Of a DNA stretch of 64,000 nt, positions 3,730-62,693 are shown in pieces. A program made the translations under genes and the position numbers. The notes under the pieces were generated by a model that searched no databases, had not been told where the DNA came from, and saw only the letters and a list, made by a program, of their open reading frames with translations. Origin of the DNA: Candidatus Woesearchaeota archaeon (GTDB taxonomy: Archaea > Nanobdellota > Nanobdellia > Woesearchaeales > WJIZ01); NCBI GenBank assembly GCA_018303125.1, contig JAGVYS010000002.1, positions 6,600 to 70,599 on the forward strand. Direction: 5' to 3'. Numbering within the stretch: position 1 is the stretch's first letter; each line of letters starts with the position of its first letter.

Positions 3730-3748
3730 AAGGGAAATTAATTCCCTT
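3730..3748 (-). terminator. hairpin (AAGGGA/TCCCTT stem) overlapping the S-layer gene stop, followed by an oligo-T tract on the coding strand
   Basis: Inverted repeat aagggaaattaattccctt at the 3' end of the minus-strand S-layer ORF, then a T-rich run (plus strand shows aaagaaaaaaaag at 3708-3729). Confidence 0.4.
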
Positions 3749-6287: not shown

Positions 6288-6457
6288 TGTGTTTCCACAC
6301 CTCACTTGATATTTAATTGAGCATTTACGTGCTGGTAAACGCACAGAGTGATTGATGTAGCGAGTTCTTTATAAAGATTCTTATATTTCGCTTTATATAA
6401 AGAGGACATAAAGTTTATATCTGGAAAATTTTTAAGAATAAAACTTTAGTAACTGCA

Positions 6458-8247: not shown

Positions 8248-8257
8248 GTGTCATCAC

Positions 8258-9007: not shown

Positions 9008-9008
9008 T

Positions 9009-35070: not shown

Positions 35071-38000
35071 TTGGTGAGTTTTAAATTGGAAAAGAAAGAT
35101 GATGACTTGGTTCTGGACTTCACAAGGGTGAAGAATTTTTTCAAGAAGTCAGACAAAACCGATTCTCCTGCAAAAGAGGGCAGCAATGACAAAGTTTCGC
35201 ACCAGGATGAAGAGATATCATTCAATTTTTCCAAGGTAAAGGGATTCTTCAAAGGCCTTGGCAAAAAAAAAGAAGATGAGAAGCAAAATGATGATTTGTC
35301 ATTTGATGCTAAAAAGGCACTTATCTGGATAATGAAATACCGTACGCTCTTGCTCCTCATCATACCATTATTTCTTGCAATATCAATAAGATGGGTGCCT
35401 GCATATTTGCCAATAACAGATGACTGGGCTGAAAACGCTATAGCCAACAGCATAAGGCAGCAGATTTCAAATGAAATTAACGCAAAGTATCCAAACCTGC
35501 CTGAGGCCAACAAGGCAACCCTTATCAATGGCCAATTGCAGCAGTTCATCAAGGCGAATGAGAAGTCAATAAACGACCAGAAAAAAGAAGTTTCTCAGCA
35601 GTTCAAGTCGCAATTACAGAAGGGAGACCAATCTTACCCGACAGATATTGACCAGTTTTTTTGGCTAAGGTATGCTGAAAACATTATCGAGAGAGGGCAT
35701 CCTGGCGACGAGCTTAGAAACCCTCAGACAAGAGAGATATGCGAAAAAATCAGTAAGAACTGTGTGCCATGGGATAACCATATGTATGCCCCTATGGGAG
35801 GGGAAGTCTCCAAGGACATGTTCAACGCTTATGTTATTGCTTATTGGCATAAGGCATGGACTGTGTTTGAGCCTGGCGCAGACCTCCTGCGCTCTGCATT
35901 TGCAGTGCCAATAATTTTTTCTGCCTTGGCAATAATTCCTGTTTTCTTCATAGCTAGGCGTGCATGCGGGAATTTTGGGGCTTTTGTCGCCTCCATAATA
36001 GTCGCTGTGCATCCAGCATTTTTGATAAGGACTTTCGGCGGCTCTGCAGACACCGACCCCTATAATGTATTTTTGCCGCTCATTATAACCTGGCTTTTCC
36101 TTGAGTCATTTGAATCAAAGAGCCTGAAGAAGAATATCGCATTAAGCTTTGTTGCAGGGATATGCGTTGCAATCTATAGTATAACCTGGGGGGGATGGTG
36201 GTACATTTTTGATTTTCTTGTAATCTCTCTTTTGCTATTCATGGTTATATATGTTTTCCTGCATAGGGACCAGTTAAATAACATACTTGCCCAAAGGACT
36301 ATCAGGCTCTCTGCCATGACACTGGCTGTATTCTTTTTTACCTCGCTTATATTCACGACAATGTTTACAAGCTACTCTACATTTGAAAACGCAATAAATG
36401 GCCCAATTGGATTCACCAAGTTTAAGGAAGTTGCAGTATCAACAATCTGGCCAAATGTATTCACAACAGTAGCAGAGCAGAACCCTGCATCACTTGAGGG
36501 TGTAATAAATCAGGCAGGCATAGGCAGCATCTTGCTCTTCTTGTTATCAATAGTGGGGATATCAATCAGCCTGATAAAGCCTAGAAGTTCGAAAGCAGCA
36601 GATGGGCTTTATTTTACCATAACTCTGGTTTGGTGCTGGTTTGTCCTCTGGCTCAAGCCAGATAGCCTGATGTTCTTCCTTTTCCTGATAAGCCTTCCAA
36701 TCATTGGCAGGATTGCTCTTGCCGTATATAAAAAGGAGATGGATCTGGATTTCAAACTGGCAATCATACTGATGATATGGTTTGGCTCAACCATATACGC
36801 AAGCACTAAAGGGATAAGATACACATTGCTTATTGCTCCTATAGCTGGCATAGGGATAGGCATAGCCCTTGGTTTCATCTATAATTTTGCTAGCTATTAT
36901 GCTGCTAAATATATGAATACTGGCAAAGTAGTTACTAAAATAATAGCAATGGCCGTCATACTTGCAATATTCATTCCTGGGCCATACAGCAAAGCAACCG
37001 ACTTGGCAAAGCAGCAGGTACCAATAATGAATGATGCATGGTATGATTCTTTGGACAAGATAAAGCAGGAGTCGGCGCAGAATGCCATCATAAATTCCTG
37101 GTGGGATTATGGGCACTGGTTTAAGGCCGTGAGCGACAGGGCAGTAACATTTGATGGAACATCTCAGGATACTCCGATGGCACACTGGATAGGAAATGCA
37201 TTGCTTACAAATGATGAAGATCTTGCTGTTGGAATACTTAGGATGCTTGACTGCGGCTCTGTAATGGCATTCTGGAAGCTTAATAGTGAAATAAATGACG
37301 GAACTAGATCTGTTGACATCCTCTATAAGGTATTAGTGATGGACAAAGAAAGCGCAAGAAAAGAGCTACTGGGGCATATAGGCCAAAGCACAGCTGAAGA
37401 AGTATTGAAATATACCCACTGTGAGCCCCCGGAGAACTACTTCATAACATCAGATGATATGATATCAAAATCTGGTGTGTGGGCTCATTTTGGAAGCTGG
37501 AATTTTGATAAGGCATTTATCTATAATACGCTAAAGAGCAAGGAGTATGTTAACAACAAGCAACGCGGTGTTGAATTCCTCAAAGATAGGTTTAATTACA
37601 CTGACAAGGATGCTGAAAATGTATACAGGGAAGTGAGTTTCATAACAAACAGTAACGATGCAAACTCATGGATAGCCCCATGGCCATCATATGGGTCAAG
37701 GCTTTCTGGGTGCTCAACAAGGGAAGATAATATTATCTGCCCTCTTCAGACAGAGAATGGAGGAATTGCAAACGTTGACATAAACCTGAAAAACAGGACA
37801 GCCAACATAATGTCCTCAAATGGGATTGTCCATCCTAAAGCAGTTGTTTTCCCTACCAAGGATGGCATAGATAAGATAGAGTATCCTGACAGCCCTGTTG
37901 GTTTTACAATGACGCTTATCCCATCAGGAGATTCATGGAGCTACATAATGATGTCTGCGCCGCTTGAAGACGGTATTTTCACAAGGCTGTATTTCCTGGA

Positions 38001-38175
38001 TGGCCATGGCCTGACAAAGTTCAGGAAATTCTCTGATATGACCTCATTTACAGGCAATAGGATAGTTATCTGGAAAATTGATTGGAATGGAACCAATAAG
38101 AACCTCGTTTACTTCAATGAAGAAGCCCCTAGTTTGCAAGAGAATATATCTGATGTTAATGCCTCAAACCAATGA
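35071..38175 (+). CDS. aglB: oligosaccharyltransferase AglB (STT3 family)
   Basis: Catalytic WWDYGHW motif (INSWWDYGHWFKAV), EL1 acidic motif ITDDWAEN after TM1, 13-TM N-terminal half plus ~450-aa C-terminal periplasmic domain; ~85-aa N-terminal extension with two copies of an LxFxxVKxFFK motif. Confidence 0.9.
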   Translation: MVSFKLEKKDDDLVLDFTRVKNFFKKSDKTDSPAKEGSNDKVSHQDEEISFNFSKVKGFFKGLGKKKEDEKQNDDLSFDAKKALIWIMKYRTLLLLIIPLFLAISIRWVPAYLPITDDWAENAIANSIRQQISNEINAKYPNLPEANKATLINGQLQQFIKANEKSINDQKKEVSQQFKSQLQKGDQSYPTDIDQFFWLRYAENIIERGHPGDELRNPQTREICEKISKNCVPWDNHMYAPMGGEVSKDMFNAYVIAYWHKAWTVFEPGADLLRSAFAVPIIFSALAIIPVFFIARRACGNFGAFVASIIVAVHPAFLIRTFGGSADTDPYNVFLPLIITWLFLESFESKSLKKNIALSFVAGICVAIYSITWGGWWYIFDFLVISLLLFMVIYVFLHRDQLNNILAQRTIRLSAMTLAVFFFTSLIFTTMFTSYSTFENAINGPIGFTKFKEVAVSTIWPNVFTTVAEQNPASLEGVINQAGIGSILLFLLSIVGISISLIKPRSSKAADGLYFTITLVWCWFVLWLKPDSLMFFLFLISLPIIGRIALAVYKKEMDLDFKLAIILMIWFGSTIYASTKGIRYTLLIAPIAGIGIGIALGFIYNFASYYAAKYMNTGKVVTKIIAMAVILAIFIPGPYSKATDLAKQQVPIMNDAWYDSLDKIKQESAQNAIINSWWDYGHWFKAVSDRAVTFDGTSQDTPMAHWIGNALLTNDEDLAVGILRMLDCGSVMAFWKLNSEINDGTRSVDILYKVLVMDKESARKELLGHIGQSTAEEVLKYTHCEPPENYFITSDDMISKSGVWAHFGSWNFDKAFIYNTLKSKEYVNNKQRGVEFLKDRFNYTDKDAENVYREVSFITNSNDANSWIAPWPSYGSRLSGCSTREDNIICPLQTENGGIANVDINLKNRTANIMSSNGIVHPKAVVFPTKDGIDKIEYPDSPVGFTMTLIPSGDSWSYIMMSAPLEDGIFTRLYFLDGHGLTKFRKFSDMTSFTGNRIVIWKIDWNGTNKNLVYFNEEAPSLQENISDVNASNQ

Positions 38176-38834
38176 AAGATTCTATATGGGCAGTCATAGC
38201 TGCCAAGAATGAGGGGAAAAATGTTACTTCTGTCATAAAGAAGGCATCTAAGTATGTAGATAACATAATTGTTGTTGATGATGGTTCCACGGATAATACA
38301 AAGGTTGCCTCAAAAAGGTCAGGAGCCATAGTTCTCAGCCATATAGTCAACCTTGGAAAAGGTGCTGCCATAAAGACAGGCTGCGAATATGCCATAGGAA
38401 AAGGCGCCACTATAATAGTGCTTGTTGACGGAGACGGTCAGCATGAGCCAAAGGAGATTCCCCGATTCATAGAGGCACTGAGGAACAGCCAAGTAGCATT
38501 AGGTGTCAGGACAAAAAGAGGTAGCATGCCTACAGTGCTCAAGTTCGGAAATTCTTTCATTAACAATGCCGCGAGAGCATTATATGGGATAAATATAGAT
38601 GACACACAGTGCGGATTCAGGGCTTTCAGGGCTGATGTGTATAATTCTATCGTATGGAGAAGTTCTGATTATAGCATGGAATCAGAGATGATTGCCAACA
38701 TAGGAAAGAAAAGATTAAAATATGCAATAGTTCCGATAAGCACAATTTATGCAGACAAGTATAAAGGAACAACTGTAATTGACGGCATAAAGATTGTATT
38801 CAATATGGTATGGTGGAGAATATCGAGGTTTTAG
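38172..38834 (+). CDS. GT2 glycosyltransferase, dolichyl-phosphate-sugar synthase-like (DPM1/AglJ/AglD-type)
   Basis: AVIAAKNEGKN...IIVVDDGSTDNT...VDGDGQHEP (DxD) GT-A signature; translationally coupled to aglB (ATGA overlap). Confidence 0.8.
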   Translation: MKDSIWAVIAAKNEGKNVTSVIKKASKYVDNIIVVDDGSTDNTKVASKRSGAIVLSHIVNLGKGAAIKTGCEYAIGKGATIIVLVDGDGQHEPKEIPRFIEALRNSQVALGVRTKRGSMPTVLKFGNSFINNAARALYGINIDDTQCGFRAFRADVYNSIVWRSSDYSMESEMIANIGKKRLKYAIVPISTIYADKYKGTTVIDGIKIVFNMVWWRISRF

Positions 38835-38835
38835 T

Positions 38836-39162
38836 ATGGTACTAGGAATACAGGTAGCTGGGCTTTGTTTTGGCCTTTTTATGATATACTATTCTTTCCT
38901 GCATTACAAGAGGAAAGAATTCACAATAAAAGAATTTAGCTTCTGGCTCGTACTATGGACTGCCTTTTCTTTTGTCTCACTGTTTCCGCAGAGCCTTGAT
39001 TTCTTTGTAGAAAGGCTCAACCTGAACAGGACAATGGACCTCTTCACAATAGCTGGCTTCATGACTCTTCTTGCTATCTTTATTTACACCTATAGCCTTG
39101 TCAGGCAAAACCAAAGAAAACTTGAGATGATAGTCAGGAAGTTCGCAAAGGAAAAGAGATAA
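38836..39162 (+). CDS. small 3-4 TM membrane protein, DUF2304-like partner of Dol-P-sugar synthases
   Basis: Start immediately after the GT2 stop; ~108 aa, hydrophobic, basic C-terminus; architecture typical of DUF2304 proteins encoded next to DPM1-like GT2s. Confidence 0.35.
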   Translation: MVLGIQVAGLCFGLFMIYYSFLHYKRKEFTIKEFSFWLVLWTAFSFVSLFPQSLDFFVERLNLNRTMDLFTIAGFMTLLAIFIYTYSLVRQNQRKLEMIVRKFAKEKR

Positions 39163-39222: not shown

Positions 39223-40320
39223 GTGGTAATGCTGGTCAAGGTCTTGGACAAGTATATTGGTGCAGTAATGTGCCTACTGCTCTCTCCTATATCCATTGCC
39301 ATAAAAAACAAGTTTCCTGAAAAAGCAAGAAAAATTTTGCTCATACAGCTATGGGGGGTAGGGGAAAGCATTCTAACTCTCCCTGCGATAACTGAATTAA
39401 AAAAGAAGTACAAAGGAAGAAGCATAGCAGTACTCTGTACTGAAAGGAACAAGGCAGTATACTATAATCAGGGCGTAGAAATAATAGAATTATCGATGAA
39501 TCCTTTACTTATAGCTTTTTTCCTCCTGAAAAATATGAGGAAATTTGATATAGTGGTTGATTTTGAGGAATATTTGAAAATATCTGCAATAATTTCTTTC
39601 CTTTTAGGGAAGTACTCGATAGGGTACTCCCACGGAATAAGAAGCAAACTATATTCTGTCAAAGTCAGGTACAACGACGTACAGCATGTTTCGCAGACAT
39701 TTGCAGATTTGTTAAATCCTCTATGTATATCAGCAAAAATACAGGAGTTAACAAAGCTGAAGTATGGAAAAGAGGATATGGACCATATTAACAAGCTTCT
39801 AAATAAGATAAAGATGAAAAATGGAAAGATTGCCGCGATATCTGCAGGGGCCGCAGAATCAGCAAAATGCAGGATGTGGCCAAAAGAAAAATGGGCAGAG
39901 CTCATTGACAGGATACCATACGAAAATGTTCTCCTTATAGGTGGAAAAGATGTCTACAGGGAGAATGAAGAAATACTAGGTATGCTAAAAAGCAGGAAGC
40001 ACGTCTGTAATATAGCTGGGATGACAAGCCAAAATGAGCTTTTCGCGCTTATGGAAAAAGTAAGCCTTGTTATTTCAATAGACTCAGGCCCGATGCATGT
40101 TGCAGCAGCCCAGAGAATAAAGACTGTAGGCTTATTCTGCCCAAATACTCCTGTAAGGTTTGGGCCTCTTGGCAAAGGCAATATCTCAATATACAAGCCT
40201 GTCCTTCCTAAACCGTGCATAAATGTACACAAGGGTGAAGTTCCAAACTGCGGCAGGCATAACCATATGAGCAAAATAGCTGTTGAAGATGTCTTTCAGG
40301 CAGCCCGCAAATCAATTTGA
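39223..40320 (+). CDS. GT9-family glycosyltransferase (heptosyltransferase-like)
   Basis: KILLIQLWGVGESILTLPAI N-terminal Gly loop and the GT9 C-terminal block DSGPMHVAAAQRIKTVGLFCPNTPVRFGPL. Confidence 0.75.
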   Translation: MVMLVKVLDKYIGAVMCLLLSPISIAIKNKFPEKARKILLIQLWGVGESILTLPAITELKKKYKGRSIAVLCTERNKAVYYNQGVEIIELSMNPLLIAFFLLKNMRKFDIVVDFEEYLKISAIISFLLGKYSIGYSHGIRSKLYSVKVRYNDVQHVSQTFADLLNPLCISAKIQELTKLKYGKEDMDHINKLLNKIKMKNGKIAAISAGAAESAKCRMWPKEKWAELIDRIPYENVLLIGGKDVYRENEEILGMLKSRKHVCNIAGMTSQNELFALMEKVSLVISIDSGPMHVAAAQRIKTVGLFCPNTPVRFGPLGKGNISIYKPVLPKPCINVHKGEVPNCGRHNHMSKIAVEDVFQAARKSI

Positions 40321-40329
40321 CAGAATATC

Positions 40330-41064
40330 CTATCCGAAATGCTCATACTCTCCGTAAGTAAAAAAACCAACGAGCTCCTTAATTCTTGCAAGCAATGGGA
40401 ACAGGTCCTTCTCAAGCGAAGGCTTATTTATCAGCTCAAATATTTCAGGCTTGAATATGTATATGCCCGCATTAACAATGTGGGAACTCATTTCCCTTGT
40501 CTTCTCGCTAAAGTCAACTATAAGATCGCCATCTAGGATAGCTGTCCCATATTCATCAGGCTTTTCCCTGGTCATAAGCCCCATGGTAGCTAGCTTGTTC
40601 AACTGAATATGTTTGCTTATCATCCTGGATATGTCAAAGTTGTTGTATGTATCTCCTGACATCACAACGAAATTTCCCCTGACCCTTTCCTTAAAAGTCA
40701 TCAATGACAGAGAATTGCCTCTAGAATTTGACTCAATTATTTCTATTGGCATACCTATAAGCGATTCTCTTAGCTCCTTATTTGGCTGTTCTGTGATAAG
40801 ATATATTTTGCTGATTCCGTTTTTAATGAAAAATTCCGCTTGGCTGCCTATTAGGCTCTTCCCCTTAAATTGCTTCAATGCTATATCCTGATGTGACCTC
40901 TTAAGCAGAAGTACTGCCTCTCCGACAGAATTTGAGGACATGCCCTTTCTTAGGTAATACTCTATAGCCTGGCTCCTTGACCTAAGCATCGTACCATCTA
41001 CTCCCGAGTCTATGAGTTTTAGAAGTGAATTATCTATTGAAATTGCAATTTTTTCTTTTAACAA
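40330..41064 (-). CDS. fusion of an N-terminal ribbon-helix-helix-like segment with a degenerate sugar-nucleotidyltransferase domain (candidate regulator)
   Basis: N-terminus KIAISIDNSLLKLIDSG...RSRSQAIEYYLRKGM resembles CopG/Arc RHH; remainder aligns with the NTP_transferase ORF at 28826 (GKSLIG..., YGTAILDGDLIVDFSEK, NAGIYIFKPEIFE, EKDLFPLLA) but lacks the catalytic LAGGxGTRL loop. Confidence 0.45.
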   Translation of the reverse strand: MLKEKIAISIDNSLLKLIDSGVDGTMLRSRSQAIEYYLRKGMSSNSVGEAVLLLKRSHQDIALKQFKGKSLIGSQAEFFIKNGISKIYLITEQPNKELRESLIGMPIEIIESNSRGNSLSLMTFKERVRGNFVVMSGDTYNNFDISRMISKHIQLNKLATMGLMTREKPDEYGTAILDGDLIVDFSEKTREMSSHIVNAGIYIFKPEIFELINKPSLEKDLFPLLARIKELVGFFTYGEYEHFG

Positions 41065-41161
41065 GGTAATACCTAGTATTACTAAATTATATTTAAATCT
41101 TTCTCTAAACTATGAAAAGGTTTATATATGATAAAGAGATAAGTATGAGAAAGTATTACCA

Positions 41162-41728
41162 ATGATAAAAATGGAAAAAATAGAAAAAATGATTGATGAG
41201 AGCATTGAAGCAAAAAGGCACCTGTACAATGAATCCGGCAGTATAAAAAAGGCTGTAGAGGCCATAAAGCACTGCTTCAGGAGCGGCAACAAAGTGCTCA
41301 TTTTTGGAAACGGCGGCTCTGCTGCTGACTCTCAGCACATGGCAGCTGAATTTGTGGGCAGATACAAAAAGGAGAGGAAAGGCCTCCCTGCCATAGCTCT
41401 TACCACAGATAGCTCCATATTGACAGCATGGTCAAATGATTACACCTATGAGACTATATTCGAAAGGCAAGTTGAAAGCTTGGCCAAAAAAGGAGACGTA
41501 CTTATCGGCCTTTCAACATCTGGAAACTCAAAAAACGTAATAAAAGCGATGGAAAAAGGAAAGGAGTTGGGAACAATAAACATATCACTCACAGGAAAAA
41601 AAGGAGGAAAGTTAAAAGAGACCAGCGACATTAATATAAATGTAGAATCGGATAATACGCCCAGAATACAGGAATGTCATCTTCTGGCTTACCATATAAT
41701 TTGCGAACTTGTGGAGGAAGACCTATGA
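41162..41728 (+). CDS. gmhA: D-sedoheptulose 7-phosphate isomerase (SIS domain)
   Basis: SIS-domain motifs KVLIFGNGGSAADSQH, IGLSTSGNS, EC...LLAYHI characteristic of GmhA. Confidence 0.85.
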   Translation: MIKMEKIEKMIDESIEAKRHLYNESGSIKKAVEAIKHCFRSGNKVLIFGNGGSAADSQHMAAEFVGRYKKERKGLPAIALTTDSSILTAWSNDYTYETIFERQVESLAKKGDVLIGLSTSGNSKNVIKAMEKGKELGTINISLTGKKGGKLKETSDININVESDNTPRIQECHLLAYHIICELVEEDL

Positions 41729-42609
41729 GATGCGTAGTAACAGGTGGCGCAGGTTTCATTGGATCAAATCTTGCGTTGCATCTTGAAAATGAAGGCGAAG
41801 AGGTCGTGATAGTTGATAATTTCAAGACAGGTAAAGAGGAAAACTTAGCCGGATTCAGGGGAGAAATAATAAAGGCAGATGTATCAGGAAAGTTCGATGT
41901 GAATGGAAAAGTAGATGTAATATTCCATCAGGCTGCAATAACTGACCCAAGACACGAGAATGATGATGAGACAATAAGAGATAACTTATCTGGATTCAGG
42001 AACATATTAAGCATGGCCATGGATAAAAAAGCAAAACTCATCTATGCTTCATCGGCTAGCATGTATGGCAATGGTCCCGCACCGCAAAAAGAAGACCAAG
42101 AAAAAGAACTATTCACAGCTTATTCTAAATCAAAACTTATGATCGATAATTTAGCTAAGGAATATCTCAGGAAGATTCACATTGTAGGGCTAAGATACTT
42201 CAATGTTTTCGGTCCGAGGGAGAAATACAAAGGCAGGGCAGCATCAATGATTTATCATCTTGCAAGGCAAATGAAAAGCGGCAAAAATCCGAGGATATTC
42301 AAAATGGGCGAGCAGAGAAGGGACCATATATATGTAAAAGACTGCGTTACAGCTAATATTAAGGCCATTAATGGGGAGCCCGGAGTGTATAATGTCGGGA
42401 CTGGGATTTGCACGTCATTCAATGATCTTATTGCCATGATAAACAAATCACTAGGCACTAATCTAAAGCCCGAGTACATTGACAATCCATACGAGAAAAC
42501 TTACCAGAAGAATACACAGGCAGATACGTCAAAAACAGAGAAGCATCTAGGATTTAAGGCAAGATACGGGCTCCAGAAAGCCATAAACGAGTATGTGGTA
42601 GAATTATGA
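41725..42609 (+). CDS. hldD: ADP-L-glycero-D-manno-heptose 6-epimerase (ORF-track start 41674; Met at 41725 with GGAGGA SD and ATGA overlap preferred)
   Basis: MRCVVTGGAGFIGSN, YASSASMYG, LRYFNVFGPRE, YQKNTQAD blocks match HldD/RfaD. Confidence 0.85.
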   Translation: MRCVVTGGAGFIGSNLALHLENEGEEVVIVDNFKTGKEENLAGFRGEIIKADVSGKFDVNGKVDVIFHQAAITDPRHENDDETIRDNLSGFRNILSMAMDKKAKLIYASSASMYGNGPAPQKEDQEKELFTAYSKSKLMIDNLAKEYLRKIHIVGLRYFNVFGPREKYKGRAASMIYHLARQMKSGKNPRIFKMGEQRRDHIYVKDCVTANIKAINGEPGVYNVGTGICTSFNDLIAMINKSLGTNLKPEYIDNPYEKTYQKNTQADTSKTEKHLGFKARYGLQKAINEYVVEL

Positions 42610-43577
42610 AGGATTTCAAAAAATGCCTGGAAGATTTCAGGAATAAGAAGATAGTAATACTTGGCGACCTGATGCTTGACAAGTATATATTCGGGAAAGT
42701 AGACAGGATATCACCTGAGGCACCAGTCCCAATAGTTAGAGTAGAGAGTGAAAAATATGTGCCAGGAGGCGCAGCAAATGCTGCTGCCAACGTATCCGCA
42801 CTTGGAGGGGAAGCCCATCTGTTCGGGATAGTAGGCAATGATTCTGCAAAGGACATATTTATGGATGTGGCAAAATCAAGTTTCATCAAAACAGATGGGG
42901 TGATAATTGACAAAAAGAAGCCGACCATACAAAAAATAAGGGTGCTTGGACCTATTCAACAGTTGCTCAGGATTGACTATGAGGATGTAGACTATATCAG
43001 CAAGGATATCCATGAGGCCATTTTAAGAAAGATAATGGTTTTAAGAAACGTTGACGCTATTATAATATCAGACTATGCGAAGGGAACAATAACAAAGGAT
43101 CTATTGGGAAAAGTAATCGCATATGCAAAGGAAAGGAATATTCCTGTAATAATAGACCCAAAGCCGAAACATGCAGAGTTGTACGTGGGGGCTACAATCA
43201 TAACACCCAACAAAAAAGAGGCAGAAGAAATAGTAAAGCACAGTATAGACACCATGGAAGATGTTGAAAAAGCAGGAAAGAGCATTTCTGAGAAGTTTGA
43301 TTGCTCTGTTTTGCTGACGTTAGGAGAGAAAGGAGTTGCCTTATTCGAAAAGGGAAAAAATGCAGTGCATATACCAGCAATAGCAAGGGAAGTTTTTGAC
43401 GTTTCAGGGGCAGGAGACACAGTTATAGCTACACTAAGCCTTGCGTTATCTTCAGGAGCATCATTGAGTGATGCTTCTATAATCGCAAACCATGCTGCCG
43501 GAATAAAGGTAGGAAAGATCGGGACAGCGCCAGTTTATCTTAACGAGCTTTCAAGAAGCTTAGAGAAATCATTATGA
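42606..43577 (+). CDS. hldE: D-beta-D-heptose 7-phosphate kinase (stand-alone HldE domain I, pfkB family)
   Basis: ILGDLMLDKYIFGKVDRISPEAPVPIV, PGGAANAAANVSALG, DVSGAGDTVIATLSLAL match the HldE N-terminal kinase domain. Confidence 0.85.
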   Translation: MKDFKKCLEDFRNKKIVILGDLMLDKYIFGKVDRISPEAPVPIVRVESEKYVPGGAANAAANVSALGGEAHLFGIVGNDSAKDIFMDVAKSSFIKTDGVIIDKKKPTIQKIRVLGPIQQLLRIDYEDVDYISKDIHEAILRKIMVLRNVDAIIISDYAKGTITKDLLGKVIAYAKERNIPVIIDPKPKHAELYVGATIITPNKKEAEEIVKHSIDTMEDVEKAGKSISEKFDCSVLLTLGEKGVALFEKGKNAVHIPAIAREVFDVSGAGDTVIATLSLALSSGASLSDASIIANHAAGIKVGKIGTAPVYLNELSRSLEKSL

Positions 43578-44566
43578 TGCCAAAAGCAATATTTCTTGAC
43601 AGGGATGGCACACTGGTTTTTGACCCTGGATATGTCCACAGGATAGAGGATTTCAAGCTCCAGGAAAACACTGACAAAGCGCTGAAAAAGATAAAAGGCT
43701 ATTTGCTTTTTATAGTGACAAATCAGTCAGGAATAGGCAGGGGCATATTCAGTGAAGAGGATATGCACAAGTTCAACAAATTGCTTATAGAAACATTAGC
43801 AAAAAGCGGAGTGTCAATAGAAAAAATATATTTCTGCCCACATAAACCTGAAGACAACTGCAAGTGCAGGAAGCCGGAAACAATGATGATTAAAGAAGCG
43901 ACAAAAGATTACAGCATAGACATTAAAGATTCTTATATGATAGGAGACGATGTGTGTGACATTGAACTCTCATCTAGGGTAGGCTGTAAAGGCATACTCG
44001 TACTAACTGGTTTTGGAAAGAAAAGCTTGAAGGAAGCAAGGATGTTCTCCCCTCATTATATATCTGCAAATCTTGAGCAGGCGTGTGACTTCATAATGTT
44101 GCAGAAGCCAGATAAGATTATAGCTAGGAAAGACATTCCGTCAATTGTCAGAAAAATAAGGGGAGAAGGCAAGAAAATAGCAACTCTAAACGGGACATTT
44201 GACATATTGCACAAAGGACATTCAAAAATAATAAATGAGGCAAGGAAAACTGCTGATGCGCTTATTGTTGGCATCAACTCTGACAGCTCTGTTAAGGGAA
44301 ACAAGGGAAAAGAAAGGCCGTTCAACAGCGATACAAAAAGAGCGCTGATGCTTTCAGTGTTCAAGGATATTGATTATGTGACGATTTTCGATGAAAAGAC
44401 ACCCATTGAAATGCTTGAAATTATAAAGCCTGATGTTCATGTCAATGGCTCTGAGTATGGCGAGGAATGCATAGAAGCAGAAACTGTAAGAAAAAACGGC
44501 GGGAGGATATGCATAGTAAAGCTTGTGCCGGGCTTTTCAACCACAGATCTTGTCAAGGAGCGATAA
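43574..44566 (+). CDS. gmhB: bifunctional D,D-heptose 1,7-bisphosphate phosphatase (GmhB, HAD) / D-beta-D-heptose 1-phosphate adenylyltransferase (HldE domain II) fusion
   Basis: N-terminus AIFLDRDGTLV...VTNQSGIGRG...CPHKPEDNCKCRKP (GmhB, including the Cys-x-Cys zinc site); C-terminus ATLNGTFDILHKGH...NSDSSVKGNKG (cytidylyltransferase-like HldE-II). Confidence 0.85.
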   Translation: MMPKAIFLDRDGTLVFDPGYVHRIEDFKLQENTDKALKKIKGYLLFIVTNQSGIGRGIFSEEDMHKFNKLLIETLAKSGVSIEKIYFCPHKPEDNCKCRKPETMMIKEATKDYSIDIKDSYMIGDDVCDIELSSRVGCKGILVLTGFGKKSLKEARMFSPHYISANLEQACDFIMLQKPDKIIARKDIPSIVRKIRGEGKKIATLNGTFDILHKGHSKIINEARKTADALIVGINSDSSVKGNKGKERPFNSDTKRALMLSVFKDIDYVTIFDEKTPIEMLEIIKPDVHVNGSEYGEECIEAETVRKNGGRICIVKLVPGFSTTDLVKER

Positions 44567-44593: not shown

Positions 44594-45286
44594 ATGTCTT
44601 CTAAAATGCCAGTAAAGCTATCAATTATCATACCAGTATATAACGAGAAAAACACAATACTTGAAGTCCTGAAAAGGGTTGAGAAAATAAAATTAAAAGG
44701 GATTATCAAGGAAATAATAATAGTGGATGACTGCTCAACTGATGGGACAAAGGAGATTCTAAAAAAGTTAAAGAGGCATAAGGTTTATTTTCATGAAAAA
44801 AATCTTGGGAAAGGCGCTGCATTAAGGAAAGGATTCATGCATGCTAGTGGCGAAATAATCATAACACAGGATGCTGACCTTGAATATAATCCTGAAGACT
44901 ATCCAATTATATTAGAGCCTTTGATGAGCAACAAGTCAGACATAGTTTATGGCTCAAGATTCCTTGGAAAGCACAACCCAAGGTACAGGCTATTCTACTA
45001 TGGAAACAAAATTCTTAGTCTTTTTACATCGGTGATATATGGCAAGAAAGTAACTGACATGGAGACCGGATATAAGGCATTCAGAAGAAGTATTCTTAAG
45101 GGGATAAACATAATATCAAATGGATTCGGTTTTGAGCCTGAGTTTACAGCCAAAGTGTTAAATAAGGGTTACAAAATTATAGAAGTTCCGGTAAGATATA
45201 AGTGCAGGGAATTTAGTGAAGGAAAAAAGATAAGCTGGAAAGACGGAGTAATGGCAATTTATTACCTGATTAGGTTCAAAAAATGA
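44594..45286 (+). CDS. GT2 glycosyltransferase (GtrB/DPM1-like polyprenyl-phosphate sugar synthase)
   Basis: LSIIIPVYNEKNTI, IIVDDCSTDGT, TQDADLEY GT-A/DxD motifs. Confidence 0.8.
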   Translation: MSSKMPVKLSIIIPVYNEKNTILEVLKRVEKIKLKGIIKEIIIVDDCSTDGTKEILKKLKRHKVYFHEKNLGKGAALRKGFMHASGEIIITQDADLEYNPEDYPIILEPLMSNKSDIVYGSRFLGKHNPRYRLFYYGNKILSLFTSVIYGKKVTDMETGYKAFRRSILKGINIISNGFGFEPEFTAKVLNKGYKIIEVPVRYKCREFSEGKKISWKDGVMAIYYLIRFKK

Positions 45287-46944
45287 ATTATTCAAAATGG
45301 GAAATAAGCCCTGAATGGGTGATAGTGGTAATATTCTCTCTTTGTTTTCTTATAATAGGACCTGCCAATATTCTTGACAAGCGAATTTCTCATGAGCACC
45401 CTTATAACATACTTGCCTCAGATGCTGCAGGGGAATTAGCGTTTGTATCCGCCCTGAATGAAAGAGGAGGTTACCAATACATGGCTCCCCATATATGCGC
45501 AGGCTATGATGATTGCATTGGCTTCCACCCTTATTTATTCCAGCATCTTGCAGCGGTATTTTCAAATGTTTCTGGACTGGAAGTGCATAATGTAAATATT
45601 TTCTTCTCAAGCATTTTTCTGCTGATTAGCTCGATAATAATGTTCCTCTTCATAAGAAAATGGAATGCATCAATTGCATACCTATCCATGCCATTGATGA
45701 TATTTGCGCTTATGCCTCAGTTCAGGATAGGGTTATTCTGGGGATACTATGATGCCATAATCGCCTCAGTATTCGCCATGGTGGCTATATTCATGCTTGA
45801 TGATGAGAAAGAAAAAAAGTGGATATTGTTATCAATAATCATTTCCGCGGCCTTTATAGCGCACGTCTCAGAAGCTGTATACATCGTAGCAGTATATGCT
45901 ATTTCCTATATCATAAAATGGGTAAAAGAGAGAAAAATAAGCAAAAAAGAAGTATACTTTATCATAAAAACAGGGTTGCTCTCATTTACAATTGTCCTGT
46001 ATTTCGGAGTTATTTTCAAGTTGCTATGGTATTCAGGAGATACCAAGGGCCCATTGTTTGGGGCTCCGCCAAAAGCAGAATGGTATGACCCGGTTATTTC
46101 CAATTTCAGTATTGAAGGCCTTGGAATGCTCTCCGGCTTGCCGCTCTATTTTATCATTGCAGGCGCCGCAATATCTCTTTTTGCCTTCAGAAAACACTTC
46201 CAGATATTGTTTGCCTGGATTATGCTGCTCTTTGGGTTCAATCCAATTGGCTTTGAGGCGATAAGGACTTTCCAAATAAGGTATCTCTGGCCGCTTTACC
46301 TATCTGTATTCTTCGGAGTAGCTTTGTTTTTCATAATGAGTTTAATTCATGCAAGAAAAAAGGAGTTATCCCTAGCTGTAGGTGCAATACTCCTTATAGC
46401 AATAAGCTACGCAAATTACGAGCCGTCTGGAAGCGCAGGAATGATTGATAATGACCATTGGAGTGCCTTGAACTGGCTCAGACAAAACACTTCGGAAAAA
46501 TCAATAATAACGGTAATGTATGGTGATGTATACAACCAAGACGCGATATTATGGAATTCCTTCAGGACATCATTCAGGATACTTGAAAACTCTTTTATCA
46601 AAAATCTCCAAGACGGGAAAATAACAAAATACTTCAGTGGCCGCGTAGTAGGACCAAGCGATGTTGGCTATGCTTACTGGAAAGGTTTTCTCCAGGTTGG
46701 AAGGCACAAGTTTGAAGAAGAAGGGAAGCTTGGTGGTGAAAGAAACATCTGCCTTTCCGAACATATAATGTTTGACAAAGTCTCCAGACAAGAAGTGCTT
46801 GCACAGTACAACATGGTTATAGCGCAAAAACTTACGGAAAAAGGCCAATTTGAAGTTGCCTACCAAAATGGAGCTGTGTTAATTATTAAAAACAAGGCAT
46901 TCAACAAAGATTGTATGGAAGAAGGTGAACTGAATGTCAGCTGA
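45283..46944 (+). CDS. polytopic membrane protein, putative GT-C-fold glycosyltransferase acting with the upstream GT2
   Basis: ~12 predicted TM helices in the N-terminal two thirds plus a soluble C-terminal domain; gene overlap with the GT2 mirrors GtrB/GtrC-type pairs. Confidence 0.4.
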   Translation: MNYSKWEISPEWVIVVIFSLCFLIIGPANILDKRISHEHPYNILASDAAGELAFVSALNERGGYQYMAPHICAGYDDCIGFHPYLFQHLAAVFSNVSGLEVHNVNIFFSSIFLLISSIIMFLFIRKWNASIAYLSMPLMIFALMPQFRIGLFWGYYDAIIASVFAMVAIFMLDDEKEKKWILLSIIISAAFIAHVSEAVYIVAVYAISYIIKWVKERKISKKEVYFIIKTGLLSFTIVLYFGVIFKLLWYSGDTKGPLFGAPPKAEWYDPVISNFSIEGLGMLSGLPLYFIIAGAAISLFAFRKHFQILFAWIMLLFGFNPIGFEAIRTFQIRYLWPLYLSVFFGVALFFIMSLIHARKKELSLAVGAILLIAISYANYEPSGSAGMIDNDHWSALNWLRQNTSEKSIITVMYGDVYNQDAILWNSFRTSFRILENSFIKNLQDGKITKYFSGRVVGPSDVGYAYWKGFLQVGRHKFEEEGKLGGERNICLSEHIMFDKVSRQEVLAQYNMVIAQKLTEKGQFEVAYQNGAVLIIKNKAFNKDCMEEGELNVS

Positions 46945-47311
46945 TGTTTTGCAAACAGCAAAAAAGGACCTTGCAAATATTGGAATAGTTTTCATTGCAT
47001 TATGCATAATTTTTAAAATATCATTCATAAACGAGCCTTTGCTTTCAATAGCTAGGATAGCTTTCTCTTTTCTGTGGATGTTTGTAATTCCTGGAATAAG
47101 CATATCCTACTTTTTTTTCATGAAATCAAAATTTATTGTAAGATTTTTCCTAGGATTTGGTATAGGAGCCGCCGTAATAGGCATAGAAAGTTACTATGCT
47201 GGCATGCTCGGGTTACACATAAAATACCATGGGATAATCCTGCCTGTCTTAACAACCATAATAACATGGCTCCTGATATTCATTAAGAAGCCTTCTGATT
47301 CTTCTTCCTGA
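46934..47311 (+). CDS. small hydrophobic membrane protein
   Basis: 125 aa, 3-4 TM segments; no motif. Confidence 0.3.
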   Translation: MSADVLQTAKKDLANIGIVFIALCIIFKISFINEPLLSIARIAFSFLWMFVIPGISISYFFFMKSKFIVRFFLGFGIGAAVIGIESYYAGMLGLHIKYHGIILPVLTTIITWLLIFIKKPSDSSS

Positions 47312-47630
47312 TATAAAGCAGAAACAGAGCTAAGGAATAGAATAGTATTGCAGAAATTCCTATACTGAGTTTTAAGCTGCTGAAGATTCTATCCAAATAC
47401 CATAAGAGAAGCGCTCCGATAATAATGCCCAAGAATACTGAGAGCAACACTCTTTCCATATTATCAATGTTGGCCAAGCCTAGGAAAAGGTATGCTGGGA
47501 ATACAAGCACAACAAAAAACCCTAGAAAAGTTGTAAAGCCTGTAAAGCCGAAAAAAAAGGAGGGAAAAATCAATATAAGGGCAATTATGCCATAATTTAA
47601 GTATTCCTTCTTAAGAGTTATTTTATCCAT
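47283..47630 (-). CDS. small hydrophobic membrane protein
   Basis: 115 aa, 3-4 TM segments; translationally coupled to the upstream 549-aa membrane protein. Confidence 0.3.
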   Translation of the reverse strand: MDKITLKKEYLNYGIIALILIFPSFFFGFTGFTTFLGFFVVLVFPAYLFLGLANIDNMERVLLSVFLGIIIGALLLWYLDRIFSSLKLSIGISAILFYSLALFLLYIRKKNQKAS

Positions 47631-49272
47631 TGTATTTGTACACCCTTATGTTATCTTTGTTATATACAAGAGTTGAATTATTCTGCATGGACTCTTCCAT
47701 TTTCATGAAGTTCCCTATTTTCTCCCTATCGCCTATAAGGACTAGGTCAGAATAATCAAAAACAACATAGTCTAGGGATATAGCCATATCCGATCCCTTA
47801 ACTAAATTAGAGGGAATGTTGAATTTTCCAAGGTCCTTTTCGACTATCTCCCTCCAGCCAGGAGGCTCGTCAGATCTTAAAATAACCCGTCTGCTAAGCA
47901 CTTGTATGAATGCCTTTTTTGGATAAGTGAGAGTGCCTATAAGATGGACAGATGAATCTTCAGCTACATTTTCCTCTATCCATCCTGACAAGGCGTATTG
48001 TGCAGGGGTAATCCTAAGTATTGGTGGATAGCTCCCGCTCAATTGTTTGTATGCCTGGACACCCTGAGTAAAGATAAGGAGGGCTACCGCTGCTACGACA
48101 ATAGCGTTCCTTGACATTTCCCTTTGTTTTCCTGAGATTGGTAATAAAGAGGGTATTGCAAGAAGCCCAACTGCCATGGTAATGTAGAAAAAGTAGCTCT
48201 CTACAACCACAAAGCGACCCACACGATAATTTCCTGGCTCAATAAGGCCAAATGCTGGCAAGTGAAAAAGTATGTAGAGTGTTAAAAGAGCAGACATCAT
48301 CAATATATCTTCCTTATTTCTTCTCCACAAAAGAACAAATGCTCCGAATATCAGGATTGGAATAGTCCAATAGTTTATGTAACTTGATGAATAATCCGTA
48401 TAGGCCGGGTTCATATCATACTTATTTTGAGGGAGCTTATGCCATAGGAATAAGCTGCCCAAATCCTTGATACCTGCATCTGTCTCGACATTTGTCGGCC
48501 CAAAATATATCCAATAGAAGGGGGAAACAACTATTGCAGCGATAATGCACATTATGCCGTAGTGCTTTAGGCTTTTGGCTGATATTGGAAGCTTCCTATT
48601 CATGACAGCCATTATCAATACAAATATTATTGAAAATATAGCCAAAAAAACAGTTGATGAGAGATGTATGAGAAACGTTGAAAGCAAAAGCAGGAAAAAA
48701 ATGTAAAGGTACTTTATCTTCTCTTCCCCACTATAGTATGAGTCAATATACTTGTATAGGAAGTAAATTGTTATAGGTATAAAGGCATAGGCAGTTACAT
48801 TGTGCCTCTGCCCCCAAAGGTACATCAATATCTCCCTGAAGGAAAATAGAAGGGCAGAAGATGAAACCAAGGCTACACTGAAACCATATAGTTTTCTTGC
48901 CAGAAAATACACTGAAAAAACAGATAGAAAGCAGGTTACTGCCACAAATATGTAAGGCGGCACAATTCTTCCTGAGCCGAATATCTGAGCCAAGGCATAT
49001 CCAAGGTTATATGGTGGAGGGTATTGCAACCCTGTTGGCCCTAGAACTGGATTGTATCCTGCATACCAGAAAAGAGTCGAGAGAGGAGTATCACCAGTAA
49101 TATCAAAAGACTTGTCCCTGAATGACATTTCGTCCCCATATGCAAAAATGTAGGCAGCATCATGCTCACCAAAAGGCATCTGGCTATTTTGAAGCGGGAT
49201 TGTCCACAACCAGAAAGCAGCTATAAATAACACTGCCAGTGCAATCTTGTCCTTTAACTGGAAAGAATCCAT
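47623..49272 (-). CDS. polytopic membrane protein, putative GT-C / glycan-processing enzyme
   Basis: 549 aa, >10 TM helices, periplasmic C-terminal domain; shares short N-terminal loop similarity (aromatic/Gly/Asp-rich first loop) with ORF 45283..46944. Confidence 0.35.
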   Translation of the reverse strand: MDSFQLKDKIALAVLFIAAFWLWTIPLQNSQMPFGEHDAAYIFAYGDEMSFRDKSFDITGDTPLSTLFWYAGYNPVLGPTGLQYPPPYNLGYALAQIFGSGRIVPPYIFVAVTCFLSVFSVYFLARKLYGFSVALVSSSALLFSFREILMYLWGQRHNVTAYAFIPITIYFLYKYIDSYYSGEEKIKYLYIFFLLLLSTFLIHLSSTVFLAIFSIIFVLIMAVMNRKLPISAKSLKHYGIMCIIAAIVVSPFYWIYFGPTNVETDAGIKDLGSLFLWHKLPQNKYDMNPAYTDYSSSYINYWTIPILIFGAFVLLWRRNKEDILMMSALLTLYILFHLPAFGLIEPGNYRVGRFVVVESYFFYITMAVGLLAIPSLLPISGKQREMSRNAIVVAAVALLIFTQGVQAYKQLSGSYPPILRITPAQYALSGWIEENVAEDSSVHLIGTLTYPKKAFIQVLSRRVILRSDEPPGWREIVEKDLGKFNIPSNLVKGSDMAISLDYVVFDYSDLVLIGDREKIGNFMKMEESMQNNSTLVYNKDNIRVYKYNG

Positions 49273-49325: not shown

Positions 49326-50360
49326 ATGACTAAGGAGATTCTTATAATTAAAGTTGGGGCATTGGGAGATGTCCTCCGTACTACTTTCCTCCCTCCATTG
49401 CTGAAAAGAAAGTATCAGGAATGTAAAATTAGCTGGGTGACAAGCATAAAGGCAGTAGAGCTCCTAAAAAATAATCCGCATATAGACGAAATATATGCCA
49501 TAGAAGGTAAAGCAAAGATAAATGGAAGATTTGACATTATTCTCTGCCTGGATGATGAGCATGAATCTGCTGAGCTGGCAACCCGTTTAAGTGGCGGTAA
49601 AATAATAGGATCATATGCAGATGGAAATAAAGTTAGGTATACTAATAGCTCAGCGCCTTGGTTCGGCATGGGCCTGCTAAGGCCTGAAGAAGAAGGTGGT
49701 CTTGAAAGAGCAAATGAATTCAAGAAAATGAACAGTAAAAGCTATTTCCAATTGATAGCCAATATAGTAAACATACAATATAACGGAGAAAAGCCAAATC
49801 TATTTCTTACAGAGGCTGAGATAGCATATGGAAAAGAGTTTGCAAAGAGGTACGGAATATCAAAAAATGATTTTGTTGTTGGTGTGAACACAGGTGCAGG
49901 AAAAAGATGGCAAAGCAAGCAATGGAGTGTGGAAAAGACAGTAGACACTATAGACATTCTTGCTGGAAAGCTCGGCTTCAAGGTCATTCTTTTTGGAGGC
50001 GAAGATGAGGAAGGTAGAAACAATAGTATAAAGGCCAGATGCAAAAGCAAAATAATTGACTCTGGAACAAAGAACAGCCTGAGGGGGTTTGCTTCAATAA
50101 TAAGCATATGCTCTCTTGTCATATGCTCTGACACTCTTGCTTTGCATATAGCAACATCCCTTGACAAGAAAGTTATAGCGCTTATTGGACCTACAAGTGC
50201 AAGCGAGATATATCTGTTTGGAAAAGGAATAAAAATATGCCCTGAAATGGAATGCGAATGCTTTTATAAGAGCAAATGTACCGCAAAAAAATGCTGCATG
50301 GATACAATAATCCCGGAAAAGGTTTCTTTGGCTGCGAAGGAGCTCCATGAAAAATCATAA
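49326..50360 (+). CDS. GT9-family glycosyltransferase (heptosyltransferase-like)
   Basis: ILIIKVGALGDVLRTTFLPPLL N-terminal signature and C-terminal SDTLALHIATSL...ALIGPTS block. Confidence 0.75.
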   Translation: MTKEILIIKVGALGDVLRTTFLPPLLKRKYQECKISWVTSIKAVELLKNNPHIDEIYAIEGKAKINGRFDIILCLDDEHESAELATRLSGGKIIGSYADGNKVRYTNSSAPWFGMGLLRPEEEGGLERANEFKKMNSKSYFQLIANIVNIQYNGEKPNLFLTEAEIAYGKEFAKRYGISKNDFVVGVNTGAGKRWQSKQWSVEKTVDTIDILAGKLGFKVILFGGEDEEGRNNSIKARCKSKIIDSGTKNSLRGFASIISICSLVICSDTLALHIATSLDKKVIALIGPTSASEIYLFGKGIKICPEMECECFYKSKCTAKKCCMDTIIPEKVSLAAKELHEKS

Positions 50361-55845: not shown

Positions 55846-55925
55846 AAATAACCTTTCAAGTCTCCTTAAAAAAGGATTAATCCTAAAATTTATAAAAGTT
55901 ACTGTACATTTCAAGCTTTATCAAT

Positions 55926-57954: not shown

Positions 57955-57981
57955 GGCTATGCTGGCTGAGATGTTGGATAG

Positions 57982-59028: not shown

Positions 59029-59029
59029 C

Positions 59030-62527: not shown

Positions 62528-62663
62528 TTTATGGCCCCTATGGAAAGTGCGAGTGTGTATGTGGTGGCAAGATAGTAAATAATGAAAATAGATATCGCCC
62601 AAATGATAAACATAGCTTCCTTTCTCATATTGAGCATACAAAGAGGTGATGTTAATAAAAAAC

Positions 62664-62674
62664 TTTTTATAGGC
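62664..62674 (+). promoter_or_regulatory. TATA-box-like element (CTTTTTATAGG) ~25 nt upstream of the cupin gene start, preceded by an A-rich BRE-like stretch
   Basis: Read from sequence; spacing consistent with an archaeal promoter driving a leaderless or short-leader transcript. Confidence 0.35.
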
Positions 62675-62693
62675 TCCTATAACTAGAATTAGT

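Follow-up and report, generated by a model that had tools for sequence, protein, structure and literature searches.

The signature sugar of the lipopolysaccharide (LPS) inner core of Gram-negative bacteria is L-glycero-D-manno-heptose (L,D-heptose). Functional nucleoside diphosphate (NDP)-heptose enzymes were described in archaea by Tang et al. (Science 2024; as summarized in the commentaries PMC11461863 and PMC11573728), Methanococcus maripaludis S2 being the archaeon named in the second commentary, and the archaeal ADP-heptose pathway as such is thus already known. According to the same two commentaries, the nucleotidyltransferases of that study fall into three architectures, namely mono-domain, kinase/nucleotidyltransferase, and isomerase/kinase/nucleotidyltransferase. 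According to the authors of that study, in a commentary of their own (PMC11573728), the purpose of archaeal manno-heptose "remains elusive", and they advise the analysis of gene neighbourhoods. One archaeal N-glycan with heptose is known, that of Thermoplasma acidophilum (PMC11407970). Here we describe a 64,000-nucleotide stretch of a Candidatus Woesearchaeota archaeon (assembly GCA_018303125.1, contig JAGVYS010000002.1, positions 6,600 to 70,599 of the forward strand; hereafter the window, to which all coordinates refer), where an operon at 41162-44566 very likely encodes, as judged from its sequence, all five activities leading from sedoheptulose-7-phosphate (S7P) to ADP-L-glycero-beta-D-manno-heptose.

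The four genes of the operon lie on the plus strand, and each pair is joined by a 4-base ATGA start/stop overlap (three junctions, from the coordinates in the list of open reading frames, ORFs), in agreement with the initial annotation of this DNA, a note made from the letters and the ORF list that had described the genes as co-oriented and overlapping. The genes and the domains of the last gene are:

41162-41728, plus strand: gmhA, 188 aa, predicted S7P isomerase with the SIS fold (step 1)
41725-42609, plus strand: hldD, 294 aa, predicted ADP-D-glycero-D-manno-heptose (ADP-D,D-heptose) 6-epimerase of the short-chain dehydrogenase/reductase (SDR) type (last step)
42606-43577, plus strand: stand-alone pfkB kinase of the HldA/HldE-I type, 323 aa
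43574-44566, plus strand: GmhB::HldC fusion gene, 330 aa
43574-44101, plus strand: GmhB domain of the fusion, predicted heptose-1,7-bisphosphate 7-phosphatase, HAD-IIIA (step 3)
44141-44566, plus strand: HldC (RfaE domain II) domain of the fusion, predicted heptose-1-phosphate adenylyltransferase (step 4)

Since an ATGA overlap is the usual sign of translational coupling, the four genes are read from their junctions as one translationally coupled operon, belonging to a Woesearchaeota (DPANN) archaeon. A longer hldD ORF is possible from 41674. Three further assemblies cover this sequence (ENA, 75.5 kb; Logan, 9.5 kb; Logan, 4.3 kb), and independent gene calls on them yield the four genes again, with the start that gives the 294-aa epimerase.

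The proteins were assigned to families by NCBIfam profiles with curated cut-offs, by Pfam, and by alignment to solved relatives from the Protein Data Bank. Their Pfam domains are SIS_2, Epimerase, PfkB, and Hydrolase_like together with CTP_transf_like, and the top NCBIfam match of every operon protein is the predicted heptose-pathway family, which bears out the initial naming of GmhA, HldD, a stand-alone HldE-type kinase, and a GmhB::adenylyltransferase. GmhA scores 223.1 bits with TIGR00441 (cut-off 209.45) and is 53% identical to Campylobacter jejuni GmhA (1tk9). Its His59, Glu63, Gln170, and His178, which we take to be the zinc/catalytic residues, align to the His/Glu/Gln/His set of Burkholderia pseudomallei GmhA (2xbl) and of 1tk9, and the SIS phosphate-binding loop is present (GNGGSAAD, residues 49-56; STSGNS, residues 118-123). 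The closest solved relative of HldD is the Helicobacter pylori enzyme (3sxp; 206 bits, 42% identity), followed by Escherichia coli HldD (1eq2; 36%). HldD reaches 269.5 bits with TIGR02197 (cut-off 274.6, i.e., 5 bits short), the next family being GalE with 106 bits. It carries the SDR motif GGAGFIGS at residues 7-14, and its Ser110, Tyr133, Lys137, and Lys169 align to Ser116, Tyr140, Lys144, and Lys178 of 1eq2, that is, to the triad and the second catalytic Lys. The kinase exceeds the TIGR02198 cut-off (375 vs. 345 bits; ribokinase 111), has Burkholderia cenocepacia HldA (4e84; 218 bits, 43% identity) as its closest solved relative, and contains the motifs GDLMLD (residues 20-25) and GAGD with the anion-hole/catalytic Asp (residues 268-271).

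For the GmhB domain (residues 2-175), the top specific families are NF006506 (165.6 bits, cut-off 178) and TIGR00213 (141.1 bits, cut-off 149.6), and the broader HAD-IIIA/histidinol-phosphatase-like models are passed (TIGR01656, 139.9 vs. 84.15 bits; TIGR01662, 118.4 vs. 44.6 bits). The domain shares 43% identity with E. coli GmhB (3l8e) and has HAD motifs I-IV at residues 9-13 (DRDGT, of the form DxDGT), 49-53 (TNQSG), 100 (Lys), and 124-129 (GDDVCD, of the form GDxxxD) and a zinc loop, Cys88-x-His90...Cys96-x-Cys98, that aligns to Cys92/His94/Cys107/Cys109 of the E. coli enzyme. The HldC domain (residues 191-328) matches TIGR02199 with 151.9 bits (cut-off 181.5), which leads the other cytidylyltransferase-fold families by more than 100 bits (glycerol-3-phosphate cytidylyltransferase, 35 bits), and the domain shares 40% identity with B. 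pseudomallei HldC (5x9q). Its motifs are H213-x-G-H216 (FDILHKGH, residues 209-216) and a C-terminal (F/L)xxGxSTT, here LVPGFSTT (residues 317-324). The similarity to bacterial enzymes, initially called unusually high, is only moderately so, with 40-53% identity to the solved bacterial enzymes and the nearest relatives (50-63%) found in DPANN.

The claim of a full ADP-heptose pathway stands, in that all five activities are covered by family matches with intact catalytic motifs. GmhA would isomerize S7P to D-glycero-D-manno-heptose-7-phosphate, and the stand-alone pfkB kinase, of the HldA type, would phosphorylate O1, yielding the beta-1,7-bisphosphate. Its 7-phosphate would then be taken off by the N-terminal GmhB domain of the fusion, and the C-terminal HldC domain would adenylylate the resulting beta-1-phosphate to ADP-D,D-heptose, so that consecutive steps 3 and 4 are predicted to be physically coupled by the presence of both domains on one polypeptide. 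HldD would finally epimerize C6 to yield ADP-L,D-heptose. The combination of a pfkB kinase with a transferase of the cytidylyltransferase fold points to the beta/ADP route, and this canonical route appears to be the best-supported reading of the operon.

The fusion of the two domains is not confined to this genome. Among the 120 best database hits to the fusion protein, approximately 86 have the GmhB-HldC order and 32 the HldC-GmhB order, and the source names of these relatives are mostly Woesearchaeota/Nanoarchaeota, plus Nealsonbacteria and "Deltaproteobacteria". A scan of GTDB genomes with the fusion alignment returned at least 600 rows, which are a sample and not a census, and the source genome is not among the matches listed. 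The matches listed include GmhB-HldC in Micrarchaeota and Nanoarchaeota, separate genes in Methanocaldococcus, and HldC-GmhB in one metagenome-assembled genome (MAG) of Methanosarcinales as well as in several bacteria. Over the proteins and loci collected here (P0001-P0120; L017, L021, L024, L025, L034, L035, L049, L077), GmhB-HldC is mainly a DPANN arrangement, and HldC-GmhB occurs in the candidate phyla radiation and other bacteria. The two domain orders suggest independent fusion events and, by inference, repeated selection for the coupling of steps 3 and 4.

Dozens of DPANN contigs contain the HldD-HldA-GmhB::HldC core. The closest relative in the set of loci examined in detail is L088 (AglB 54%, HldD 61.5%, and HldA 62% identity), which is collinear with the window from the oligosaccharyltransferase gene aglB, upstream of the operon, to the gene of a DUF6541 protein downstream of it. 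The order AglB, GT2 (family 2 glycosyltransferase), GT9 (family 9), nucleotidyltransferase-like gene, operon is present in L088 and in at least eight more metagenome contigs (L103, L110, L113, L119, L122, L130, L135, and L137), and the operon side of these contigs reads first gene, HldD, HldA, fusion, GT2. In the lineage of archaeon GW2011_AR15, the SIS-HldD-HldA-fusion operon is found again, downstream of a GT9 gene. In a bacterial MAG (L087), an SIS-HldA-fusion operon without HldD, whose neighbours encode a histidine kinase and an SBP_bac_5 protein, is nearly as close to the studied genes as the DPANN relatives are (47-60% identity).

The window contains four markers of its archaeal origin in addition to aglB:

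39-821: aIF2-alpha
1004-1780: PAC2 proteasome-assembly protein
1781-2359: Gins51
3747-6344: S-layer-like protein

All five share the 64-kb sequence with the operon, and the host was therefore rightly called an archaeon. The GC content is even across the window (0.37-0.44), without an island signature, and an NCBI protein of Candidatus Woesearchaeota matches the fusion protein with 100% identity. Neither tRNA genes nor Rfam matches were found in the window. Its gene content includes the last two enzymes of the methylerythritol phosphate (MEP) isoprenoid pathway, GcpE/IspG (15161-16372, plus strand, 367 bits) and LytB/IspH (16369-17286, minus strand, 306 bits), so that the DPANN genome has another pathway of bacterial type besides that for heptose.

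Several other readings of the operon were weighed against the canonical route. It is highly improbable that the ORFs serve other sugar-phosphate pathways, with ribokinase, KdsD/DiaA, GalE, histidinol-phosphatase, and glycerol-3-phosphate cytidylyltransferase/RibL in place of the heptose enzymes. All these paralogous families do give secondary matches, and GmhB and HisB-N are evolutionarily close (PMC9798254), but the heptose models score far above the paralogues (375/111, 223/136, 269/106, 166/109, and 152/35 bits), and all five activities occur together in one operon adjoining GT9 genes. The findings that would have spoken for such a reassignment are absent: neither a ribokinase nor a KdsD or DiaA protein is encoded by the operon, and the epimerase retains its Ser/Tyr/Lys signature and the second Lys. 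A bacterial origin of the genes, on a mis-assembled or mis-binned contig, is scarcely credible. It would accommodate the many bacterial relatives of all five domains, the GmhA-HldA-GmhB::HldC operon of the bacterial MAG, and the bacterial-type IspG/IspH genes, but the archaeal markers and the uniform GC content span the same 64 kb, identical junctions recur in independent assemblies from different samples, and the arrangement with AglB is common to dozens of DPANN contigs. Sigma-70-like promoter matches are also fewer than in shuffled sequence (15 sites vs. 23 expected), and TATA-box-like elements lie 5' of both divergent genes at the head of the operon; this promoter scan and the one for intrinsic-terminator-like sites, which occur at chance level, are both uninformative for an archaeon. 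The operon is archaeal (DPANN), and a chimeric or bacterial contig is very unlikely.

The choice of nucleotide is less certain. Production of CDP- or UDP-heptose by the nucleotidyltransferase domain, instead of or besides ADP-heptose, is unlikely but deserves more weight than the two preceding readings. The motif of promiscuous heptose nucleotidyltransferases is (F/L)xxGRSTT with Arg at position 5, termed STTR5 (PMC11573728). In the HldC domain this position is Phe321, so that the hallmark of CTP/UTP promiscuity is lacking; across the fusion family the residue is mostly Tyr or Phe, with Arg in 3 motif matches among the 120 best hits. Furthermore, the HldD and GT9 enzymes characterized to date use the ADP-linked sugar. 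ATP is accordingly the nucleotide that Phe in place of Arg predicts, with the proviso that the Arg rule is not absolute. Two observations weigh against a strictly canonical ADP route. Many heptose nucleotidyltransferases, archaeal ones included, are NTP-promiscuous and do not strictly need the STTR5 Arg, whose absence consequently does not strictly rule out CTP or UTP (Tang et al., 2024, via the commentary PMC11461863). In addition, three of the five profile matches (HldD, GmhB, and HldC, the nucleotidyltransferase domain itself) fall slightly to moderately under the NCBIfam equivalog cut-offs.

The operon lies inside a glycosylation island that extends from approximately 35 kb to at least 63 kb of the window. 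From the 5' side, the order is AglB, GT2, DUF2304, GT9a, a divergent NTP_transferase-like gene, and the operon; the latter is followed by GT2, a 553-aa membrane protein, DUF6541 on the opposite strand, GT9b, GT2, a methyltransferase, and GT9c; and the far 3' part contains three GT4 genes with SDR enzymes, a CDP-glucose route, another GT2, and a PMT_2 protein. The features of the window that bear on the fate of the heptose are:

35071-38175, plus strand: AglB (STT3-type oligosaccharyltransferase), 1034 aa; PF02516, 126 bits; WWDYG at residue 677
38172-38834 and 38794-39162, plus strand: GT2 (PF00535) and DUF2304 small membrane protein (PF10066), between AglB and GT9a
39223-40320, plus strand: GT9a; PF01075, 108 bits; closest solved relatives 3tov and WaaF 1psw
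44594-47311, plus strand: genes 3' of the operon, comprising GT2 (44594-45286), a 553-aa polytopic membrane protein (45283-46944), and a 125-aa membrane protein (46934-47311)
49326-50360, plus strand: GT9b; PF01075, 68 bits; 52% identical orthologue in L088
51645-52643, plus strand: GT9c; PF01075, 80 bits; closest solved relatives 3tov and WaaF 1psw
3747-6344, minus strand: S-layer-like protein, 865 aa; PF05124 outer domain; signal-like N-terminus

AglB scores 61 bits with the subfamily model TIGR04154 (cut-off 450). Orthologues of the GT2 beside it are 56-64% identical in related loci, and those of GT9a (42-48% identity) hold the same position there. The PF01075 matches confirm that three GT9 genes are encoded nearby. 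The first gene 3' of the operon (GT2; PF00535, 128 bits) is separated from the fusion gene by a 27-base gap and is followed by overlapping ORFs, and this order is repeated in L088 and in many metagenome loci; the GT2 and the two membrane-protein genes possibly share the transcription unit of the operon. For the 553-aa protein, GtrII/DUF6541 matches are sub-threshold only.

The product of the operon is presumably consumed by the GT9 enzymes. The conserved block AglB-GT2-DUF2304-GT9-(RHH/NT-like gene)-operon-GT2, where the gene in brackets is the divergent one, named for its ribbon-helix-helix-like (RHH) and nucleotidyltransferase-like (NT) parts, points to heptosylated N-glycans or other surface glycans. 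Because of the conserved linkage to AglB, a heptose-containing lipid-linked oligosaccharide or N-glycan is our leading hypothesis: the cytoplasmic GT9 enzymes would add heptose to a lipid-linked oligosaccharide, and AglB would transfer the heptose-bearing oligosaccharide to surface proteins. Whether the heptose ends in an AglB-dependent N-glycan we regard as evenly balanced. The initial annotation had presented the pathway as that of the LPS inner core; the pathway is indeed defined there, whereas its use here is set in an AglB/N-glycosylation context, and no lipid A or 3-deoxy-D-manno-octulosonate (Kdo) acceptor genes were found among the Pfam/NCBIfam matches of window ORFs of at least 150 aa.

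An alternative, on balance less likely but still to be reckoned with, is that ADP-heptose is made but used by the GT9 enzymes for some other surface polymer or a glycolipid, or to attach heptose directly to proteins within the cytoplasm, for which the bacterial autotransporter heptosyltransferases offer a precedent. The GT9 proteins are not orthologues of any characterized heptosyltransferase, and the GT-C-like membrane proteins of the window (the 553-aa protein, DUF6541, and PMT_2) suggest extra routes independent of AglB. The following observations likewise speak against the leading hypothesis. All three GT9 proteins fall under the cut-offs of the LPS heptosyltransferase models (TIGR02193/02195/02201), the best score being that of GT9c with TIGR02195 (113.9 vs. 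134.6 bits), followed by GT9a (81.7) and GT9b (71.9). The S-layer-like protein is not enriched in sequons (10 N-x-S/T observed vs. 8.7 expected). Linkage to AglB was seen in 6 of the 27 relatives with a cupin gene in first position (see below) whose upstream sequence reaches 5.5 kb or more, and in the AR15 locus no AglB or other STT3 protein is encoded within 10 kb, the operon and GT9 lying there with a Wzx-type flippase, DegT, and GT4. Against this alternative stands the collinearity of AglB, GT2, DUF2304, GT9, the NT-like gene, and the operon in at least nine independent related contigs, which is hard to explain unless function is shared. As a wider proposal, put forward tentatively and with less confidence than the N-glycan destination itself, a DPANN supra-operon (AglB, GT2/DUF2304, GT9, RHH/NT-like gene, heptose operon, GT2, and GT-C-like proteins) would place L,D-heptose on surface N-glycans, its first enzyme being interchangeable between an SIS GmhA (the window) and an as yet unrecognized, phosphomannose isomerase-like mono-cupin S7P isomerase (most relatives), and its phosphatase::adenylyltransferase representing a fourth heptose nucleotidyltransferase architecture.

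The island has further components. By analogy with similar pairs of bacteria, the GT2 and DUF2304 proteins next to AglB may be a polyprenol-phosphate-sugar synthase pair. The polytopic membrane proteins are encoded at 45283-46944 (plus strand, without a family match), 47623-49272 (minus strand, DUF6541), and 60716-62734 (minus strand, PMT_2); these and the GT2-DUF2304 pair have the appearance of GT-C-type extracytoplasmic transferases with a polyprenol-phosphate-sugar synthase, for further glycosylation outside the cell membrane. The CDP-glucose route (57169-59944, plus strand, and 54871-55914, minus strand) comprises a glucose-1-phosphate cytidylyltransferase (TIGR02623, 311.7 bits), a CDP-glucose 4,6-dehydratase (TIGR02622, 442 bits), and more SDR proteins, which suggests CDP-linked deoxyhexoses, as in bacterial O-antigens. 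Far from the island, upstream of the S-layer-like gene, a region on the minus strand (6458-13707) contains genes for a MoxR-type AAA_3 ATPase, DUF58, VWA, BatA-like, DUF7502, DUF7408, and DUF7407 proteins.

In most relatives, the place that gmhA occupies in the window is taken by a gene for a small cupin, of 120-128 aa in the loci examined (L086, 7764-8129; L088, 7759-8121; L002, 7517-7903; L003, 1515-1844) with the metal motif His-x-His...Glu...His. A metagenome scan for this cupin yielded 80 loci (L089-L168). Of the 58 loci having at least 1 kb of downstream sequence, 35 have HldD or HldA as the next gene after the cupin, and an SIS GmhA is found in none of the 80 within the approximately 6-10 kb covered on either side; conversely, no cupin homologue is encoded in the window. 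Many members of the cupin family carry precomputed Pfam matches to type II mannose-6-phosphate isomerase and lyxose isomerase, and a confident structural model of the protein (pLDDT 88) is best matched by mono-cupin phosphomannose isomerases of Thermococcus (TM score 0.74-0.80), a resemblance to be read with the reminder that cupins all look alike. The conversion of S7P to D-glycero-D-manno-heptose-7-phosphate is the seven-carbon analogue of that of fructose-6-phosphate to mannose-6-phosphate. This analogy and the resemblance to phosphomannose isomerase lead us to hypothesize an in-situ non-orthologous displacement of GmhA, the cupin being, as a reasonable hypothesis, a candidate non-orthologous S7P isomerase. 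Alternatively, the cupin would be an epimerase, possibly of NDP-heptose, and gmhA would be encoded elsewhere in the genome. Nothing relevant to a cupin-type S7P isomerase appeared in the literature searched, and absence there is not proof of novelty. If the isomerase hypothesis is true, replacement of GmhA by a cupin adds a new enzyme family to a pathway that is considered for antibiotic targeting.

The divergent neighbour of the operon and the spacer that separates the two comprise:

40330-41064, minus strand: RHH/NT-like gene, divergent from the operon; PF00483 over residues 67-218, from profile position 28
41065-41161: 97-base spacer with TATA-like boxes toward both genes
41066-41082: unique palindrome GTAATACCTAGTATTAC
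41122-41129, plus strand: putative archaeal promoter TTTATATA, 5' of gmhA
41143-41160, plus strand: element AGTATGA-N4-GTATTACC, immediately 5' of the gmhA ATG

A TATA-like box followed by AGTATGA-N4-GTAWTAC also precedes the first operon gene in L088 and L086. The divergent protein belongs to a family of at least 670 homologues (57-70% identity), every source name of which is DPANN, and its gene adjoins the operon in 26 of the 55 related loci with upstream sequence. The N-terminus has a weak match to RHH_1 (E 0.027, under the cut-off). The AlphaFold2 model (pLDDT 80) has a GDP-mannose pyrophosphorylase-like fold, and the nucleotide-binding loop G-G-x-G-T-R (GxGTR) is replaced by K-G-x-H-Q. 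The protein was considered as HddC of the GDP-heptose route and rejected, with 27.5 bits against a cut-off of 300, the nucleotide-binding loop missing, and no GHMP kinase. The divergent position, the TATA-like boxes, the palindrome, and the conserved element make a regulator plausible, and it is our speculation that the protein is a sugar-nucleotide-sensing regulator of the operon.

The locus and its relatives supply the neighbourhood evidence called for above, with heptose synthesis, including the 6-epimerase, genetically tied to GT9 and AglB. They offer a testable answer to the question of why some archaea make heptose, namely, that DPANN archaea would use it to heptosylate their surface glycoproteins. 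For DPANN cells, which live attached to hosts, the chemistry of the surface is of central biological importance. ADP-heptose is moreover a potent agonist of ALPK1, and environmental or host-associated archaeal producers would therefore bear on innate immunity.

Compared with the bacterial pathway of E. coli and H. pylori (GmhA, HldE, GmhB, and HldD, for the LPS inner core), the operon has the same five activities, families, and catalytic motifs, and GT9 enzymes are the presumed consumers in both. The differences are that here the phosphatase, and not the kinase, is fused to the adenylyltransferase, and that the host is an archaeon without an outer membrane or LPS, with AglB/N-glycosylation-type neighbours instead of lipid A/Kdo genes. 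A stand-alone pfkB kinase is shared with the split HldA and HldC of Burkholderia and Neisseria, whereas HldC is here the C-terminal domain of the GmhB fusion, with LVPGFSTT where Burkholderia HldC has the STTR5 Arg (FEHDRSTT). The GDP-D-glycero-alpha-D-manno-heptose pathway (GmhA, HddA, GmhB, and HddC) is used by Gram-positive bacteria and Campylobacter to build S-layer glycans and capsules. It has in common with the present locus the start from S7P with GmhA, the GmhB phosphatase, and the decoration of surface glycoproteins that is proposed for the locus, but it employs a GHMP kinase and a guanylyltransferase of the NTP_transferase fold and leads to the alpha anomer, in contrast to the pfkB kinase and cytidylyltransferase fold found here. 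As to the heptose N-glycan of T. acidophilum, no genetic basis is given in the text consulted (PMC11407970), we know of no link to GT9 or to an hld operon, and the organism belongs to a different archaeal phylum. The literature searched contained no report of heptose with Woesearchaeota, Nanoarchaeota, or Pacearchaeota, nor of GT9 in archaeal N-glycosylation, which is not proof of novelty. As in the archaea of Tang et al., the ADP-heptose-forming isomerase, kinase, phosphatase, and nucleotidyltransferase all have homologues here; unlike the architectures listed there, the nucleotidyltransferase of this archaeon is fused to the phosphatase, and the locus adds HldD, three GT9 enzymes, and AglB in conserved synteny.

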